The notes beneath the pieces were generated by a model. It was not told the origin of the DNA. It ran no database searches and saw only the letters and a list, made by a program, of their open reading frames with translations. Shown here piece by piece: positions 730 through 33,664 of a DNA stretch of 64,000 nt; position 1 is the first letter of the stretch, and the number at the start of each line of letters is the position of its first letter. A program made the position numbers and the translations under genes. Origin of the DNA: Alphaproteobacteria bacterium (GTDB lineage: Bacteria; Pseudomonadota; Alphaproteobacteria; JAEULC01); contig JADLEG010000250.1 of NCBI GenBank assembly GCA_020846275.1, positions 9,875 through 73,874 of the forward strand, given 5' to 3'.

Positions 730-1905
730 TCAGTCGCGCATGTCGCCGCTGATGAAATGTCCCAGCGGGGCCAGCGTCTCCACCCGGTCGCAGATCAGCT
801 TGAACGAGGCCAGCATGGGAACCGCGAGAAACGCGCCCATGACGCCCCACATCCAGTACCAGAAGACGATCGAAATGATCACGAGGACGGGATTGAGGGT
901 GAAGCGCTTCGCCAGCAGCATCGGCGTGACGCTGTCAGCCTCGATCAGGTGGATCGCGAGGTAAATCCCGGCCGGGATCAAGGCGGTCATCGCCGAGTCG
1001 AACGTCAGCAGGCCGGCCAGGAAAAGGATCGCCGAGCAGCACAGCGGGCCGATGATCGGGACAAAGTTGAAGACGAACGCAACCGTGCCCCACAGAAGCG
1101 GGTCGGCAAGGCCGCAAAAATACGCCGCGATGCCGGTAAGCGTGCCGACCAGCAGGTTCATCAGGCTGATCGTCACCAGGTATTGCGAGAGGTTGCGCTC
1201 GATCTCGCGGGAGATCTCCACGACCTGCTTCTTGTTGCTGTAGGTAGGGACGATCTCGATCAGTTTCCGCAGAAAAAGGTTGCCCGATACCAGCAGGAAG
1301 AACAGCAGCAGCATGGTGGTGAACCATCCCACCACCAGGCTCCGCGTGCCCGTGAACAGCATGCTGCCCAGGCCCTCGCCCTTCACGGTCACGGGGATCA
1401 CCGGCGTTGCGGCATTGTCCGTCAGCTTGTCGACGTTCTGGGTCACGCGCGCCAGTTGCTGCATGGGCGCCTTCAGCAGGTCGGCCCAATTCTCCAGTTT
1501 CGCCATCGCCTTTGGGGCCTGCGCGAACCATCCCGTGGCGGGTCCCGACAGTGGAATCATGACCGCCGCGACAAGCCCGCACAGCAACAGCACCAGCAGC
1601 AACGCATTCAACACTCGGGGCGTGGGCATCCGGTCGAGCAGGCGCATCGCCGGCTGCAGCAAGGTGCTGAGAATGAACGCGAGAACGATCGGGATGGCAA
1701 GTTCGCGAAGGAAATAGAGCGCCGTCAGGCACAGAATGACGAAGATGCCGGCGAGCAGTACGACCGGGAGGCTTTGCGGCAGGGCGAAATCGCCTTCTTC
1801 CTCACCGGCCTTCGCGAGCGTGAGCAGACGCGGCGCGGGCGGGGCCGCTTTGCCATCCGGCGCCTCGTCGGGGATTTCTTCAGCGAGCTCGATTTGGCCT
1901 GTCAC
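730..1905 (-). CDS. AI-2E family (PerM/YhhT-like) transporter
   Basis: Multi-TM protein; PIVLAFILSTLLQP, FFLL..G..F, FNFVPIIGP, PVLVIISIVFWYWMWGVMGAFLAVP. Confidence 0.88.
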   Translation of the reverse strand: MTGQIELAEEIPDEAPDGKAAPPAPRLLTLAKAGEEEGDFALPQSLPVVLLAGIFVILCLTALYFLRELAIPIVLAFILSTLLQPAMRLLDRMPTPRVLNALLLVLLLCGLVAAVMIPLSGPATGWFAQAPKAMAKLENWADLLKAPMQQLARVTQNVDKLTDNAATPVIPVTVKGEGLGSMLFTGTRSLVVGWFTTMLLLFFLLVSGNLFLRKLIEIVPTYSNKKQVVEISREIERNLSQYLVTISLMNLLVGTLTGIAAYFCGLADPLLWGTVAFVFNFVPIIGPLCCSAILFLAGLLTFDSAMTALIPAGIYLAIHLIEADSVTPMLLAKRFTLNPVLVIISIVFWYWMWGVMGAFLAVPMLASFKLICDRVETLAPLGHFISGDMRD

Positions 1906-4107: not shown

Positions 4108-5802
4108 CTAGTCGACGCCCCCGGTCGGGATCGGAAATACGACCTTTAGACAAAAATCGGCGGGACGCCTGGCGAGTTCCAGTTTGCCGCCAAGCTGCTG
4201 AACGAACCCCCGGACAAGGGTCTGGCTCAAGCCGTCCGAATCGGACAGCAAGGGTCGCGTCTCGCTGCGTATCAAAAGCTCTCCGCGGCCTTCGGGATGC
4301 AGCAGCAGTTCGATCCGCAGACTGCATCCATGCGCCGCGGCCGGTTCCGGATTCAAGCAATTGATGACGATCTCCGCGATCATCAACCCCAGCGGCCCAG
4401 CTTGGTCCGTGGACAGCTCCATCGGCGGCGCGATGATATCGATGCTGACGAGGTCACGGTCCTCGTCGTCAGCCATCCCGGCGAGTTGCGTCACCAGTTC
4501 GTTCAGGAACGATTGGATCTCGATCGCCCGCACCTCCTGGCGCCGATACATGTGCTGGTGCAGCAGCATCAGCGCGACGATGCGCTCCCGCGCGACATGG
4601 ATCGCCGAACGGGCCACGGGGTGGCGGATGCGATGCGCCTGAAGGCTGAGCATCGACGAGACGATCTGTAGGTTGTTCTTGACGCGATGATGGATCTCGT
4701 GGACGAGCTGGTCGCGCTGGGTCAGAAGCTCCTTCAGCTTCACTTCGCGGTCGGTCACCGTTTCCGTCACCTCGACAAAGCGCCTGGCCAGCCGGCGCAG
4801 TTCGGCCGGCATCGCCGGCAGACCGGGCGGGGGTGTGAACGGCACCTCTGACCCGCCATAGGAGCGGAACGCGTTTCCCAGCATCCGCAAAGGCTTCAGA
4901 ACGGAATAGTGGGCGCCAAAGGTGACGACCAGGACGCTGAGCCCCAGCAGCAGCACGATCTGCGTCAGGCGGAAGGCGAAGTCGGCATCGGCATGGCTGA
5001 TCGTGGGGCTGGCCGGCAAGGCGGCCATGAGCAGAAGGGAATCCGTCAATGGACGCACGGCATAGAAGACCTGTTCGCCGCTCTGGGTCCCGCTCTCGAA
5101 CACGGAATCGGTTCTCGCTGTCGACAGGCCACCGGCGACGGGCTGGGGCAGCAGCTCATCGCCGCCGACGATGTTCACGGCCCGGTCGCCGCCCCGCGGC
5201 AGGATCCACACGGCGCTACCTTCCGGCATGCGGCCATATCCGGGCATGCTGGCAAACGCCGCCACGGGCATCGTGGCGCCGACGGTGGCGACGATCCCAT
5301 CGTTGCCCGCAATGGGCAGCCCCGCCAACAAGGCGCCTCGGGATTCCGGGAATTCCACAGTGGTGAGCGCCACGGAGAAGCCGCCCGTGGTCTTGACCGA
5401 TTCGAAAAGCGCCGACGGGCTGAAGCCGCCGCCGCTGCGCCCGGTGCTGCACTTGAGATGGCCGATCTGGTCGAGCAGGAAGAAACCGCCGAAATACTTT
5501 CCGGTAGAGACGATCTTCTCGATCAGGCTGCGGTCGCAGGCAGGGGACGACGCCGAAGCGACTTGTGGGGCAAGCGCGGTCAGAAGTTGCTGCGTCGCCG
5601 CCAGGACTGTGGCCTGCTCGCGCAGCACGGCGTCGGCCAGCATGGCGACCACGCGGCGGCCTGCCGCCAAATCGGCTTCGCGCCGGTTGACCGCGTTCGA
5701 TATTGCAGCCACGACAACCGGAATCGTCACCAGTATCAGCAGGAGGACGAGACGGACCCTGACCGATAGGCGACCGACCCACCGCGGCTTCAAAGCACCC
5801 AC
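4108..5802 (-). CDS. Membrane sensor histidine kinase-like protein (HisKA_2) with degenerate ATP-binding domain
   Basis: Two TMs, periplasmic Cache-like and HAMP-like regions, H-box EIHHRVKNNLQ; G1 box replaced by IRSETRP. Confidence 0.85.
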   Translation of the reverse strand: MGALKPRWVGRLSVRVRLVLLLILVTIPVVVAAISNAVNRREADLAAGRRVVAMLADAVLREQATVLAATQQLLTALAPQVASASSPACDRSLIEKIVSTGKYFGGFFLLDQIGHLKCSTGRSGGGFSPSALFESVKTTGGFSVALTTVEFPESRGALLAGLPIAGNDGIVATVGATMPVAAFASMPGYGRMPEGSAVWILPRGGDRAVNIVGGDELLPQPVAGGLSTARTDSVFESGTQSGEQVFYAVRPLTDSLLLMAALPASPTISHADADFAFRLTQIVLLLGLSVLVVTFGAHYSVLKPLRMLGNAFRSYGGSEVPFTPPPGLPAMPAELRRLARRFVEVTETVTDREVKLKELLTQRDQLVHEIHHRVKNNLQIVSSMLSLQAHRIRHPVARSAIHVARERIVALMLLHQHMYRRQEVRAIEIQSFLNELVTQLAGMADDEDRDLVSIDIIAPPMELSTDQAGPLGLMIAEIVINCLNPEPAAAHGCSLRIELLLHPEGRGELLIRSETRPLLSDSDGLSQTLVRGFVQQLGGKLELARRPADFCLKVVFPIPTGGVD

Positions 5803-5907
5803 CGTGTTATCCCAGCCCGTACGAGGAAGCGCGGCAGGACGATTTTTCGCTGACCGATCCGCCTAGGACCGCCCCGCGCATGAGCGACGCCTGCGCATTC
5901 CAGCCGC

Positions 5908-6050
5908 CTAGTGTCCCGATTCCGAGGTTCGTCAGTGTTTGCGACGAAAAGGACACGAGCAACTATTTGAGTCTAGTGCCCCTTTGGAACCCGAAGTTCG
6001 CCTCCGGTCTTGCGATCAAGCGAAGGCGAACTTCGGGTTCGGGGCACTAG
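5908..6050. repeat. CTAG-bounded palindromic mosaic repeat, copy 1 (two-unit, 24-nt internal deletion)
   Basis: Near-identical to 33497-33664; CTAG at 5908, 5973 and 6047; arms GAACCCGAAGTTCGCC/GGCGAACTTCGGGTTC. Confidence 0.9.
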
Positions 6051-6274
6051 TTATCCTTGATCTTCTTGTCGTCGATCAACTGGAGGAGCTCGTCGGGAAC
6101 GGGCTCGTGCGCCACGTCCGAGAACATGTCGCGCAACTCCCGTTTCAGCCACAGATCGAACGCCGTCGACGTCTTGTCAGCACGCCTCGCCGGTTTCGGT
6201 GCCTGCCGCGCCTGCGCGCCGCCGGCAGCCTTCCTGGCGCTGTCGGCGGGTCGATCCGTGGGTCGTTTTGCCAT
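6047..6274 (-). CDS. nepR: NepR anti-sigma factor
   Basis: Low-complexity N-terminus then FDLWLKRELRDMFSDVAHEPVPDELLQLID; adjacent to ecfG/phyR. Confidence 0.88.
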   Translation of the reverse strand: MAKRPTDRPADSARKAAGGAQARQAPKPARRADKTSTAFDLWLKRELRDMFSDVAHEPVPDELLQLIDDKKIKDN

Positions 6275-6425
6275 GATGGTGTCAATCCGCAAAGACGCCA
6301 CGGTCGCGCACCCAGTGGCCCCAAACCCGCCGTCACGCGGAAGGAAGGCAGCCTGCATAATTCCCGACATGCCGTGCATTCCTCTAAGGCGGTAAGATAC
6401 CGCTCACCACCAACTATCGCAATCG

Positions 6426-10405: not shown

Positions 10406-12088
10406 TTGGAACTGGGCCTCGCAATGGAACCTGCCGAGGCTGACGCGGCGACGGCCACCCAGGCCGGATTTCCTGCGTTGATGCGTTCGACACAGGCAAT
10501 CGTGCTGGTCAGCGTCATCGTCATCCTCGTCTCGGTGTCGATGTTCGTGGTCTACGAGGCTGCAAACCGCCGCAGCCGGGCCAGCGAAGCGCGGCAGGTG
10601 ATCTCCAGCATTTCGCTGATGCTTGCCGAGGAGGTCGGCCGCATTCTGGATGTCGCCAACCTGGTGGCAGGGCACGCCATCGAGATCAGCCGCAATCGCA
10701 GCTGGGACGATATCGAGCAATCGCGCGCGATCTTCGACGAGCTCGCCCGGCTGGACCGCGCCTACAGCTTCATCTCCGCCATCTGGCTGACCGATGCTTC
10801 AGGCATGCCGCGCCAATCGACGCGCTCCTTCCCGCCGCCGCACGTGAGCGTTGCCGACCGCGAGCACTTCAAGGTCCAGCGAGAAGCCGACCGGGGTCCT
10901 TTCGTCAGTCCTTTGGTCCGCAGCCGGGTACGGACCGAAGCAAACATCGTGATGAGCCGCCGTATCCAGGACACGTCCGGCGGCTTTCAGGGAGTCGCGC
11001 TCGTCGTCCTCGATCCGCAGTATTTCCTGCGTCTCTATCGGGAAATCCAGGTCGAGTATCCGGTCGCGATCGAGGTCGTCCGGTTCGACCGGTCGATCCT
11101 GCTGCGCGCTCCGACAGCCGCGGTGGAAGAGTCGCTCGACGCCGTGAAATCGACGGGACCGGCCCTCGAAGCAACCAGCGCCGCCAGCGGGCTTTTCGCT
11201 GCAAAGGAACCCGGCGAGAGCGGCGAGCGGATGCAGGCCTATCGCCGGGTCGAGGGGTTCCCGTTGTATGTTGTCGTCAGCGTCCTCAACGCCGATGTGG
11301 CGCAAAGCTGGCTGAGCGCAATGTATGTACATGGAGGGTTTGCCGCCCTGGGCCTGGTGGCAGCATTGGCTGCTCTCGCCCTAGCCCATGCCTATGGCCG
11401 GCGAGAGCAGCAGACATTGCGCGATATCCGCGGCCTGAATGCCTCACTGGAAATGCGGGTGAAGGAACGCACGCAGGCGCTTGAGCACTTGCTGCAGGAA
11501 GTCACCCATCGCGTGAAGAACAGCCTTCAACTCACGGCCAGCCTGCTGCGCCTGCAGCAGAACAACGTGCGGGACCAGCCGACACGCGAATACCTGTCGG
11601 ATGCGCAGACGCGCGTGCTGACCATCGCCCGGCTGCATGAGCATCTGTACCAGGCAGGAAATTTCCGCCAGGTCGAGTTGAAGCGTTATCTCGGGACGAT
11701 CTGCGCCGATGTAGGCGGCGCGTTGCCGGGTCACCAGATCAGCTTCAAGAGCAGTTTCGGTTCAGCCCTGGTGCCGGTCGATCTCGCCATCCCCATTGCC
11801 CTCGTGCTGACCGAGCTGCTGACAAACGCCATGAAGCATGCGTTCAGCGGCGATGCCGGCAGCGTGGCGGTGTCGCTCGATGGCGATGGCGAAAGCGGCA
11901 GGCTGGAGGTGGCCGACAATGGCCGCGGCCTGCCCTTGGACTTCGATCTGCACCAGGCGCAGGGCCTGGGCATGCGGATCGTGCTGGGCTTGGTCAAACA
12001 AGCCAACGGCGAAATCTCTGTCGATTCCGGTCAGACGGGCACGCGATTTGAAGTGCGCTTTCCCTTGTCTGGCGGCGGCGGTCCATAG
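10406..12088 (+). CDS. Membrane sensor histidine kinase (Cache domain, HisKA_2); start probably somewhat later
   Basis: TM-Cache-TM; EVTHRVKNSLQ, ELLTNAMKHAF, VADNGRG, GLGMRIV intact. Confidence 0.9.
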   Translation: MELGLAMEPAEADAATATQAGFPALMRSTQAIVLVSVIVILVSVSMFVVYEAANRRSRASEARQVISSISLMLAEEVGRILDVANLVAGHAIEISRNRSWDDIEQSRAIFDELARLDRAYSFISAIWLTDASGMPRQSTRSFPPPHVSVADREHFKVQREADRGPFVSPLVRSRVRTEANIVMSRRIQDTSGGFQGVALVVLDPQYFLRLYREIQVEYPVAIEVVRFDRSILLRAPTAAVEESLDAVKSTGPALEATSAASGLFAAKEPGESGERMQAYRRVEGFPLYVVVSVLNADVAQSWLSAMYVHGGFAALGLVAALAALALAHAYGRREQQTLRDIRGLNASLEMRVKERTQALEHLLQEVTHRVKNSLQLTASLLRLQQNNVRDQPTREYLSDAQTRVLTIARLHEHLYQAGNFRQVELKRYLGTICADVGGALPGHQISFKSSFGSALVPVDLAIPIALVLTELLTNAMKHAFSGDAGSVAVSLDGDGESGRLEVADNGRGLPLDFDLHQAQGLGMRIVLGLVKQANGEISVDSGQTGTRFEVRFPLSGGGGP

Positions 12089-12102: not shown

Positions 12103-12176
12103 CTAGTACCTCGAACCCGAAGTTCGCCATCGCTTGATCGCAAGACCGGAGACGAACTTCGGAATTGGGACACTAG
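12103..12176. repeat. CTAG-bounded palindromic repeat, copy 2 (single hybrid unit, inverted)
   Basis: Reverse complement = unit-A left arm + unit-B loop + unit-B right arm; CTAG at both ends. Confidence 0.88.
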
Positions 12177-12553
12177 CGGCGCCGCAGCATGCCCATCAAC
12201 AACCCCGCGCCGAGCAGCGCGATCGTGGCGGGGTTGAGGTTTCGCAGCACCGTGCCGATCTGCTGCGCGAGGATTTCCGGCGATTCGAGATCCGCGGCGA
12301 GACATTGCTGCGGCGTGGCGCCGATGGCGGGTCCGACCGACGCGGCAGCCGCTGCAGGCCGGTTCAGGAGAGCCGCCAGCAGCGTGACCATACCGGCAAT
12401 GCCCATCAATGCCAGCCCAACCAGCAGCGCGGACATGCTGGGCGAGAGGCGAAGCTCGACGAGCGCTAGATAGCAGGCGGAGATCAGGAAGCCGGCGCCC
12501 ACCACCGCCAGCGCGGCGATCACCGCCCCGGCGACGACGCGGGCGCGCCACAT
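12173..12553 (-). CDS. Membrane protein, YqjE/phage-holin-like superfamily type
   Basis: Hydrophobic helices; directly follows DUF883 gene as in yqjD-yqjE-like operons. Confidence 0.6.
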   Translation of the reverse strand: MWRARVVAGAVIAALAVVGAGFLISACYLALVELRLSPSMSALLVGLALMGIAGMVTLLAALLNRPAAAAASVGPAIGATPQQCLAADLESPEILAQQIGTVLRNLNPATIALLGAGLLMGMLRRR

Positions 12554-32132: not shown

Positions 32133-32157
32133 GGAACTTGCCGGAACAGAGTGCGTT
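32133..32157 (+). promoter_or_regulatory. EcfG-type promoter GGAAC-N16-CGTT
   Basis: Exact consensus upstream of NRAMP. Confidence 0.82.
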
Positions 32158-32195
32158 CGTTGCCTGCGTGCAGCGGCGGGGAAGTGGGGATCGGG

Positions 32196-33500
32196 ATGGA
32201 CGCGACGCCGAACATCGACGCGGCAGCCGATCAGCCGGCTGAACCAGACCAGCCGGACAAGCGCAGCTTCCTTGCCATGCTCGGCCCCGGGCTTGTCACC
32301 GGCGCCGCGGACGATGATCCCAGCGGCATTGCAACCTACAGCCAGGTCGGCGCCCAGTTCGGCTATGGCCTCTCCTGGACGTTGCTGTTCAGCTTTCCGC
32401 TGATGGCGGTGATCCAGTCCGTCAGCGCCCGGATCGGATGCGTGACGGGCTGCGGCATCGCCCAGAACCTGCGGCGCCACTACCCCGCTCCGCTGCTCTG
32501 GGTGGTAGTGTCGCTGCTGATCGTGGCCAACGTCGTCAATCTCGGCGCCGACCTTGGCGCCATGGGTGCGGCGCTCCACCTGCTCGTGGGCGGGCCGGAA
32601 CTCGCCTACACGATGCTTTTCGGACTGGCCTGCGCCCTGCTCGAGATCCTCGTCAGCTACAACCGGTATGCCGGCATCCTGAAATGGACGACGCTGTCGC
32701 TGTTCGCCTATGTGGCGGTCGCGTTCGCGGCGGGCGTTCCCTGGGGTACGGCCCTGTACCACACTTTCGTTCCGCAGATCGTCCTGGATGGGCAGCACGC
32801 CATGGCCATCGTCGCGATACTCGGTACGACCATCAGCCCCTACCTGTTCTTCTGGCAGGCGGGGCAGGAGGTAGAGGAACAGCGCAGGCGCCACGTGAAG
32901 CCGCTCTGCGTGGCACCACGCCAGGCGGGGGACGAGCTCGCCCGCATCCGCACCGACACCATTCTCGGCATGGGCGTGTCCAACCTGATCGCGCTGTTCA
33001 TCGTGTTCGCCGCCGCGGCGACGCTTAACGCCAAGGGCGTCACCGACATCCAGACCTCGGCCCAGGCCGCCGAAGCCCTTCGTCCGGTCGCGGGCGACGC
33101 GGCATTCTTCCTGTTCGCGGCGGGCATCGTCGGGACGGGGATGCTGGCGGTTCCGGTCCTGGCCGGCTCGGTGGCCTATGCCGTCAGCGAGATGTTCCGG
33201 TGGAAGGAGGGCTTGAACCGCCGGCCGCGCCAGGCCAAGGCCTTCTACGCGGTCATTGCGGCCACTACCCTCGCCGGCGTGGGGCTCAATTTCATGTCCG
33301 TCGACCCGATCAAGGCGCTCTACTGGAGCGCCGTTGTCAATGGGGTGCTGGCCGCACCGCTGATGGCGATCATGATGCTGATCGCGGTGAACCGACAGAT
33401 CATGGGGCGACTGACGCTCAGTCCCGCCATGATTATGGGCGGATGGATGGCAACGATCGCAATGGCGGCCGCCACGGTCGCGTTTGCGGTCGCGGACTAG
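32196..33500 (+). CDS. NRAMP family divalent metal cation transporter
   Basis: LGPGLVTGAADDDPSGIATYSQVGAQFGY, ILGTTISPYLFFWQ. Confidence 0.92.
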   Translation: MDATPNIDAAADQPAEPDQPDKRSFLAMLGPGLVTGAADDDPSGIATYSQVGAQFGYGLSWTLLFSFPLMAVIQSVSARIGCVTGCGIAQNLRRHYPAPLLWVVVSLLIVANVVNLGADLGAMGAALHLLVGGPELAYTMLFGLACALLEILVSYNRYAGILKWTTLSLFAYVAVAFAAGVPWGTALYHTFVPQIVLDGQHAMAIVAILGTTISPYLFFWQAGQEVEEQRRRHVKPLCVAPRQAGDELARIRTDTILGMGVSNLIALFIVFAAAATLNAKGVTDIQTSAQAAEALRPVAGDAAFFLFAAGIVGTGMLAVPVLAGSVAYAVSEMFRWKEGLNRRPRQAKAFYAVIAATTLAGVGLNFMSVDPIKALYWSAVVNGVLAAPLMAIMMLIAVNRQIMGRLTLSPAMIMGGWMATIAMAAATVAFAVAD

Positions 33501-33664
33501 TGTCCTGATTCCGAAGTTCGTCAGTGCTTGCGACGCACGCCGTACGAACTTCGGAATCGAAAAGGACACGAGCAACTATTTCAAGTCTAGTGCCCCTTTT
33601 GAACCCGAAGTTCGCCTCCGGTCTTGCGATCAAGAGAGGGCGAACTTCGGGTTCGGGGCACCAG
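33497..33664. repeat. CTAG-bounded palindromic mosaic repeat, copy 3 (complete two-unit form)
   Basis: Hairpin A (GATTCCGAAGTTCGT/ACGAACTTCGGAATC), linker, CTAG at 33587, hairpin B; right end CCAG. Confidence 0.9.

Follow-up and report, generated by a model that had tools for sequence, protein, structure and literature searches.

The DNA analysed here is a 64-kb stretch, referred to as the window (C250:9875-73874 of assembly G000; 5.56 Mb, 312 contigs, 68.5% GC), which contains three related palindromic repeats with CTAG at their borders. The question raised by this locus is whether these repeats are mobile DNA, and if so which transposase moves them, or whether they are hairpins kept for a function in the host. 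The evidence presented below indicates that the three repeats are very probably copies of a gene-less, non-autonomous transposon, a MITE, derived from a clade of insertion sequences (ISs) of the IS630 family (Tc1/mariner superfamily).

Anatomy and copy number of the repeat family

The positions of the three copies, their parts and the stop codons that overlap them are as follows, with the source of each assignment in brackets.

5908-6050, plus strand: copy 1, coordinates exact (sequence, family alignment, module scoring)
5908-5959, plus strand: unit A of copy 1, with a 24-nt deletion of its right arm (family alignment)
5960-5972, plus strand: linker of copy 1 (family alignment)
5973-6050, plus strand: unit B of copy 1, intact (family alignment)
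6047-6049, minus strand: TAG stop of the NepR-like gene (ORF 6047-6379), within the right-terminal CTAG of copy 1 (ORF list)
12103-12176, minus strand (inverted): copy 2, a 74-nt single-hairpin derivative (sequence, alignment, module scoring, covariance model)
reverse complement of 12153-12176, minus strand: A-left arm of copy 2 (module scoring)
reverse complement of 12103-12128, minus strand: B-right arm of copy 2, the B loop lying between the two arms (module scoring)
12173-12175, minus strand: TAG stop of a 126-aa ORF (12173-12553), within the terminal CTAG of copy 2 (ORF list)
33497-33664, plus strand: copy 3, full length (alignment, module scoring)
33497-33572, plus strand: unit A of copy 3 (covariance model R1, 66.7 bits)
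33573-33586, plus strand: linker of copy 3, CAACTATTTCAAGT (alignment)
33587-33664, plus strand: unit B of copy 3 (covariance model R1, 74.9 bits)
33498-33500, plus strand: TAG stop of the Nramp transporter gene (32151-33500), within the left-terminal CTAG of copy 3 (ORF list)

An earlier, sequence-only reading of the window had taken copy 3 to be complete, and this was confirmed along with the exact coordinates of all three copies; the right end of copy 3 is mutated to CACCAG, i.e., its right-terminal CTAG has become CCAG. Copy 1 had been described as the same element minus 24 nt at a CG microhomology, which the alignment bore out as an internal deletion of the right arm of hairpin A near 5945-5948, and this deletion is unique among the 57 loci of the genome. 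Model R1 scored copy 1 at 79.9 bits over 5973-6050 and at 13.8 bits over 5908-5959. The proposed composition of copy 2 (A-left arm, B loop and B-right arm) was supported by both alignment and module scoring; its architecture, predicted to be the product of recombination, is exactly what slippage or recombination would yield from the repeated arms that contain CCGAAGTTCG, and it was also found at two further loci of the genome (C260:8614-8688 and C59:38135-38208). Within the 64-kb window, the covariance model of the unit matched these three loci alone, and no transposase gene was found there, as the same reading had stated.

Two of the genes that end within the repeats were identified by Pfam, namely, the NepR-like ORF (6047-6379; NepR, PF18557, 29.2 bits) and the Nramp gene (32151-33500; PF01566, 290 bits); the putative 126-aa ORF (12173-12553, minus strand) gave no Pfam match. 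The NepR-like anti-sigma gene (minus strand) adjoins an HWE/HisKA_2 histidine kinase gene (4108-5802, minus strand), and copy 1 sits between the start of the kinase and the stop of nepR. A second kinase gene (dCache-HisKA_2) is present at 10406-12088, and the regions 4108-6379 and 10406-12088 together resemble a general-stress-response neighbourhood of the PhyR-NepR-EcfG type. The NepR-like gene and the kinases, taken with the relatives identified, assign the genome to the Alphaproteobacteria.

The full element is ~168 nt long (167-169) and is composed of unit A (CTAGTGTCCCGATTCCGAAGTTCG, loop, and CGAACTTCGGAATCGAAAAGGACAC followed by T or G and then AG), a 14-nt linker (CAACTATTTCAAGT) and unit B (CTAGTGCCCCTTTGGAACCCGAAGTTCG, loop, and CGAACTTCGGGTTCGGGGCACTAG). 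The two units, 72-79 nt in length with stems of ~25 bp, are copies of a single ~77-nt palindrome that have diverged and face in opposite directions: the reverse complement of unit A matches unit B column by column, and both the bulge of 4-5 nt and the semi-conserved loop motif GCCGCA are shared. Each unit corresponds approximately to two IS terminal inverted repeats (~24 nt, GTGYCC..GAAGTTCG) facing each other over a ~22-nt loop. The ~24-nt arm is present four times per element, and each element would carry four copies of the presumed transposase-binding end. Alignment of all loci together with their flanks showed sharp borders, with conservation stopping at the terminal CTAGs.

The RNA fold of the 168-nt consensus showed two long hairpins and a single-stranded linker, with a free energy of -98.8 kcal/mol as compared to -49.8 +/- 4.2 kcal/mol for shuffled sequences (z = -11.6), and the DNA fold had the same shape (-61 kcal/mol, z = -11.0). 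The linker had been regarded as an imperfect inverted repeat in itself. The repeat is real, but it is a by-product of the terminal motif (CTAGTG.CC / GG.CACTAG), which occurs four times per element, and in the minimum-energy fold its bases pair inside hairpins A and B and not mutually. The motifs GATTC and GAATC were found mid-stem in both arms of unit A, where they had been required by the pattern used for collecting the copies.

The genome-wide blastn search proposed to establish copy number was carried out with the three copies and yielded not three but 57 family loci (E-values down to 1e-92), vindicating the earlier view of a dispersed, MITE-like mobile family. About 35 of the 57 loci have the full length, six of them being interrupted by contig ends, and the repeat therefore breaks the assembly. 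The remaining loci comprise five 72-74-nt hairpins (A-left arm, A loop and B-right end), three 74-75-nt hairpins including copy 2 (A-left arm, B loop and B-right arm), four solo B units, one solo A unit, four 104-108-nt forms (A, linker and a collapsed mini-B), four truncated or internally deleted loci including copy 1, and one orphan 24-nt end (C286). Apart from simple truncations, all the variant classes retain A-left and B-right as their outer ends. The pairwise identity of 28 full copies ranged from 80 to 98% with a mean of 92%, and so the family did not arise in a very recent burst. The k-mer depth of the element was 20-30 times that of its flanks in each of four independent metagenomes from sludge or wastewater, which is consistent with the census, and the window sequence was encountered again in metagenomes of wastewater and activated sludge from 10 or more studies. 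The strong hairpins at which short-read assemblies of this sludge bacterium break are explained by the element. At another locus, L111 (about 1644-1900, minus strand), a tandem array of A, linker, A, linker and B was observed, which could have arisen by unequal recombination or by one copy inserting at a CTAG of a second copy.

Insertion sites and target duplication

The tetranucleotide at the borders of the element is rare in its host. CTAG was observed 2,386 times in the genome as against ~16,156 expected from base composition, a depletion of ~7-fold, far stronger than in other palindromic tetramers of the same composition, of which GATC, for one, occurs 51,449 times. In 725 of the 2,386 CTAGs, the TAG ends a long ORF of high GC3 on either strand. 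At 30 of the 57 family loci, a high-GC3 ORF of 80 codons or more ends at the TAG of a terminal CTAG, and five loci, located between convergent genes, provide stops at both ends. By a rough estimate, made without a count, something like 7% of all CTAGs in the genome are supplied by copies of the element. The element appears as a transposon exploiting a rare, counter-selected word, many surviving examples of which are C-TAG stop codons.

The search for empty CTAG sites in relatives, suggested in the sequence-only reading, was performed with ten loci, the two flanks of which were joined at a single CTAG and searched for in six genomes of the same genus. Three empty orthologous sites with a single CTAG exactly at the junction were found, C210:8843 and C43:40665 both being empty in G001 and C260:8614 in G002 as well as G005; for the remaining joined loci, the intergenic DNA of the congeners had diverged too far for comparison. 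Five of the six congeners were without any copy of the element, and G001 showed two weak matches. The view entertained as the rival one, that the repeats are static terminators, is refuted by these empty sites. The element is non-coding, 168 nt long and multi-copy, and related genomes differ in whether they carry it, all of which are traits of MITEs.

Target duplication was analysed with 103 full-length copies drawn from many genomes. G followed the left TA in 92 of 92 cases and C preceded the right TA in 84 of 84, and the outer flanking bases varied independently of each other (C in 88 of 92 on the left, G in 79 of 84 on the right), as exemplified by the non-canonical flanks GTAG...CTAA and TTAG...CTAA. 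In view of the invariant inner G and C and the varying outer bases, the duplication is therefore assigned as TA and the target as NTAN with a strong preference for CTAG. The terminal G and C that complete each CTAG, judged from these alignments, belong to the element itself. Duplication of TA and 4-bp duplication of CTAG look identical at canonical sites, and the assignment of TA rests on the non-canonical copies and on the behaviour of the family. The CTAG borders reported earlier are real; as a description of the element, "CTAG-bounded" is better replaced by a TA duplication plus the terminal G and C of the element. Elements of the IS630 family are known to duplicate TA, and IS630 prefers TA within CTAG (PMC2170065; Tenzen and Ohtsubo, 1991, cited therein).

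Other ISs were found within CTAGs of the element at C259 of this genome and at L204 and L119 in others. At C259:18768-18887, a second copy of an IS630 element of the C28 type abuts the MITE via a shared CTAG (...AAATGAAATGCT, CTAG, GGTCCCGATT), and therefore the rebuilt CTAGs of the element serve as landing sites for other ISs. The first copy of that unrelated IS630 (C28:1-1053) has CTAG at both flanks and inverted repeats reading CTAGAGCATTTCATT.

Parent insertion sequence and proposed mobilisation

A search for IS630-type DDE_3 domains identified, on contig C36 of genome G009, a gene encoding a 368-aa IS630-family transposase (Pfam DDE_3 and HTH; NCBIfam NF033545, 259 bits). The ORF extends to the end of the IS (...CGCGAACTTCCGGTTCAGGACAC followed directly by TAG, also given as ...ATGCCGCGAACTTCCGGTTCAGGACAC followed by TAG), and so its stop is formed by the terminal TA and the flanking G. 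The end of this IS agrees with the B-right end of the MITE at 22 of 26 positions. When the transposase was used for tblastn against the genome under study, it matched the orphan end on C286, where a 3' IS remnant (C286:17340-17630) showed 64% amino acid identity to residues 278-368. The remnant encodes ...PKPFRWTKSADDILAAINRF...PALPRTSESGH followed by the stop, and its last 24 nt are identical to the A-left arm of the MITE (24/24).

Screening of 59 element-bearing genomes with the G009 transposase revealed full-length, CTAG-flanked ISs of 1,164-1,186 bp at L203 and L213 (G099) and at L204 (G105), with 24-nt inverted repeats (CTAGTGTYCTG...TTCG); intact transposase ORFs of this clade are those of L203 (369 aa) and L204 (362 aa). 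At L204, the IS occupies a MITE's terminal CTAG, and the ORF of the IS likewise ends in the terminal TAG; the transposase stop is composed of the terminal TA and the flanking G in three IS copies. The transposases of the matching ISs scored 259-287 bits with NF033545. The ends of the MITE agreed with those of the G009, G099 and G105 ISs at 16-22 of 26 positions, and at up to 24 when the C286 remnant was included. The unrelated IS630 at C28:1-1053, taken as a negative control, agreed at 8-11 of 26 positions, four of which were CTAG itself. This intact IS630 of the genome (~1,053 bp) was rejected as the parent, its inverted repeats being unrelated. Within the IS630 family, IS630 and elements of the IS870 type take TA in a 5'-CTAG-3' target and have a transposase ORF ending at the IS terminus. 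The present element shares with IS630-family ISs the inverted repeats, the TA duplication and the preference for CTAG, but differs from them in having no transposase, in its length (168 nt vs. ~1.17 kb), and in the doubling of each end to form a palindrome, by which the number of end copies rises from two to four.

The C-terminal tail of the transposase is also recognisable in the element. Frame +0 of the element consensus (window 33497-33664) is open across all 168 nt and ends in ...RTSGSGH and a stop. These residues represent the tail of the G009 transposase, since the B-right arm is an IS right end. Insertion inside a gene could thus add a 55-residue tail instead of truncating the product immediately. 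The element makes spurious ORF extensions, which is a concern for annotation.

A transposase homologue at E <= 1e-30 was detected in just 11 of the 59 element-bearing genomes, and so the MITE usually outlives its parent IS. In the genome under study, no intact cognate transposase was found in the assembly or was visible in the reads, and a second set of matching ends was represented by the C286 orphan end alone. The C286 remnant was single-copy in four metagenomes, and no metagenome contig continued it into a full-length IS, Logan contigs being known to drop rare variants. Neither presence/absence polymorphism of insertions in the sampled populations nor empty-site joints at copies 1 and 2 in the metagenomes were seen among Logan contigs, which break at the repeat. 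The dead IS630 remnant is adjoined by an IS3-type fragment (C286:17834-17974; ...RLHSALGYRPPEEFE...), the read depth of which is 4-5 times that of the flanks, and so it belongs to another repeat family, which ends the contig.

The mobility of the element can be envisaged as follows. With a cognate IS630 transposase provided in trans, the outer ends would be bound by the enzyme and the element excised, which would then be inserted at TA with a strong preference for TA in 5'-CTAG-3', the TA being duplicated. Such cut-and-paste transposition is the mode described for the IS630 family, for which the transposase alone suffices in vitro (PMC2170065 and references therein). As the element begins with G and finishes with C, CTAG would be rebuilt on both sides, and therefore insertion would keep the stops of one or even two convergent genes: a gene with its TAG stop in the target would retain it on either strand, and new CTAG targets would arise. 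The 72-79-nt hairpins, the 104-108-nt forms and the deletion in copy 1 are the forms to be expected from slippage or recombination between the four direct or inverted repeats of the arm, and the earlier interpretation of copies 1 and 2 therefore holds. The family is probably immobile in this genome at present, unless a transposase arrives from outside, because nothing but a dead 3' remnant is left of the parent IS. The element is ordinary selfish DNA with a neat design; an IS630-derived MITE is a kind of element already known, and no new kind of biology is involved.

Distribution, alternative explanations and relation to known repeats

The core pattern of unit A was found in at least 120 stretches among species-representative genomes, the matches listed including Xanthobacteraceae (Bradyrhizobium, Nitrobacter and Pseudolabrys), Hyphomicrobium, Filomicrobium, Caulobacter, Caulobacterales and Rhodospirillaceae. 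C. ginsengisoli had a few copies and Hyphomicrobium sp. CS1BSMeth3 tens of them, as did a Rhodospirillaceae MAG, and 5 of 41 sampled Caulobacter genomes carried the family, with BLAST and the covariance model in agreement. The A-linker-B architecture was the norm in all carriers examined. The plasmid collection gave one weak match, from Bradyrhizobium, and so the family is chromosomal. The MITE family is widespread yet patchy in Alphaproteobacteria and usually survives without the parent IS. A relative of the same class with a complete 5.0-Mb genome (G012) has no copy of this MITE and shows a massive expansion of another IS630-family IS, with ~50 near-identical copies bearing a 372-aa ORF.

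Comparison of 25 diverse copies across genera showed double-sided, pair-keeping changes in 19 of 50 stem pairs, one-sided changes being almost absent. These compensatory changes lie nearly all in hairpin B, the invariance of unit A being an artefact of the search pattern. Co-evolution of both ends with the transposase accounts for part of the stem symmetry. The covariation in hairpin B is near-perfect, exceeds that expected of simple MITE decay and may hint at an additional constraint.

Two other types of transposase had been suggested as the source of the family, and both were set aside. Spread and maintenance by a RAYT (REP-associated tyrosine transposase, Y1/HUH), as in REP/BIME-type repeats, would account for palindromic units in alternating orientation joined by a linker, which are superficially BIME-like, and for the conserved tetranucleotide at the base of each hairpin; moreover, one Y1_Tnp gene is present in this genome (C14:8658-8981). 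However, this gene lies 9 kb from the nearest copy and has no flanking copies, and Y1_Tnp (PF01797) does not co-vary with the element, being missing from four genomes rich in copies (G022, G042, G043 and G041) and present in two that lack the element (G002 and G005). REP/BIME share with the element the mosaic of palindromic units in alternating orientation, but the units of the latter are larger (72-79 nt vs. 20-40 nt for REP), lack a GTAG head and any RAYT association, and have ends matching IS630 inverted repeats, with TA duplication at empty sites. A RAYT origin is, hence, extremely improbable. A MITE of IS5/IS701 type, with 4-bp CTAG duplication and TG...CA ends, fits the canonical sites equally well, where CTAG is present at both ends and single at empty sites, and IS5-family elements such as IS711 do target CTAG/YTAR (PMC2266754). 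In addition, one copy in a Xanthobacteraceae MAG contains an IS5-family fragment of ~350 nt (L119:3868-4205), the 3' end of a transposase (...LIGDTAYDAD...YDKLARNFLAGVQLASAIILLN and stop) located between the linker and unit B. This fragment is an insertion into the element and not its parent, and tblastn with it, the one fragment tried, gave zero matches in the genome under study. In the non-canonical copies, the inner G and C are constant and the outer bases of the two terminal tetranucleotides differ between left and right, contrary to a 4-bp duplication, and the full-length ISs with matching ends encode IS630 transposases, no IS5/IS701 element with these repeats having been seen. An IS5/IS701 parent is very unlikely on these grounds.

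The hairpins could also be primarily host-selected modules that have become dispersed, possibly alongside a transposon origin, acting as 3'-end mRNA stabilisers or terminators, as insulators between convergent genes, or as carriers of CcrM (GANTC) sites. Their extreme stability in folding, the 30 of 57 loci placed directly on stop codons and the five between convergent genes, and the compensatory changes in 19 of 50 stem pairs across genera speak for such a role, as does the presence of GATTC and GAATC in unit A, CIR repeats having been found through GANTC sites (PMC2229807). Against it, the GC-rich hairpin with a T/U run that marks an intrinsic terminator was absent from the element in a consensus scan, which gave no terminator or promoter match; the element has no T-run and ends in GGGGCACTAG, followed by variable flank. 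No orientation bias with respect to the upstream gene was observed (11 A-side and 8 B-side), Rfam gave zero matches in the window at the gathering threshold, the E-value mode returning chance miRNA-hairpin matches far below threshold, and congeners lack the element at the same sites. The association with stop codons is largely accounted for by the places in which a genome of 68.5% GC retains CTAG, 725 of the 2,386 CTAGs being such stops. As to GANTC, about eight copies in this genome have GATTG in place of the left GATTC, and the wider conservation of unit A is an effect of the search pattern. Primary selection by the host is, hence, improbable, and a role at mRNA 3' ends or as a GANTC carrier, equally improbable, is not needed to explain the data. 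Derivation from IS630-family ISs is retained as the explanation of the family.

Among known repeats, Correia/NEMIS of Neisseria and RUP of Streptococcus pneumoniae are hairpin MITEs of ~100-160 bp with ~24-26-bp inverted repeats and TA duplication, and like the present element they show length variants due to internal deletion and gene-proximal positions. For RUP, an element of the IS630 family has been named as the parent (Table 1 of PMC2229807), and the present element is in origin and mechanism a repeat of the same kind. Their sequences and hosts are, however, unrelated, and each forms one long end-to-end hairpin, in contrast to the two separate hairpins, single-stranded linker and specifically rebuilt CTAG of this element. 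A literature search with the core sequence string matched unrelated primers alone.

The closest description in the literature is that of CIR (Caulobacter CcrM-associated intergenic repeats; Chen and Shapiro, 2003), alphaproteobacterial and strictly intergenic repeats with two inverted-repeat arms and a linker, a conserved GANTC, TA termini and a mechanism of mobility that was unknown (PMC2229807, PMC10969869). The element, judged from its fold against the CIR description, has the same layout of two inverted-repeat arms and a linker in intergenic DNA of alphaproteobacterial hosts. CIR are ~110 bp long with GANTC at or in the terminal loop, whereas the element is 168 nt long (with 104-108-nt variants) and has GANTC mid-stem; a further difference is that just 5 of the 41 Caulobacter genomes sampled carry the family. 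As judged from their description, the published CIR repeats may be related to the element. Bru-RS1 and Bru-RS2 of Brucella are likewise palindromic alphaproteobacterial repeats, of ~103-106 bp, and are hot spots for an IS inserting at TA in YTAR, which makes them candidates too; the occurrence of other ISs in the CTAGs of the element (C259 of this genome, L204 and L119) resembles this described behaviour, and the IS5-family insertion at L119 parallels that of IS711 in Bru-RS repeats.

The doubled IS630 ends, the inverted units and the stems kept paired across Hyphomicrobiales, Caulobacterales and Rhodospirillales raise the rather unlikely possibility that the double palindrome is a selected architecture and not the debris of decay, and, linked to it, that the family or its 104-108-nt form is of the CIR/Bru-RS kind. 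If the architecture were selected, either transposition would depend on four end-sites or on extrusion of a hairpin or cruciform, or copies would be retained by hosts as 3'-end modules at C-TAG stops. If the family were of the CIR/Bru-RS kind, IS630 transposases would explain how those repeats move, a question open since 2003-2008. IS630 transposases are a concrete candidate for the mobility of the CIR-like two-arm repeats described 20 years ago.
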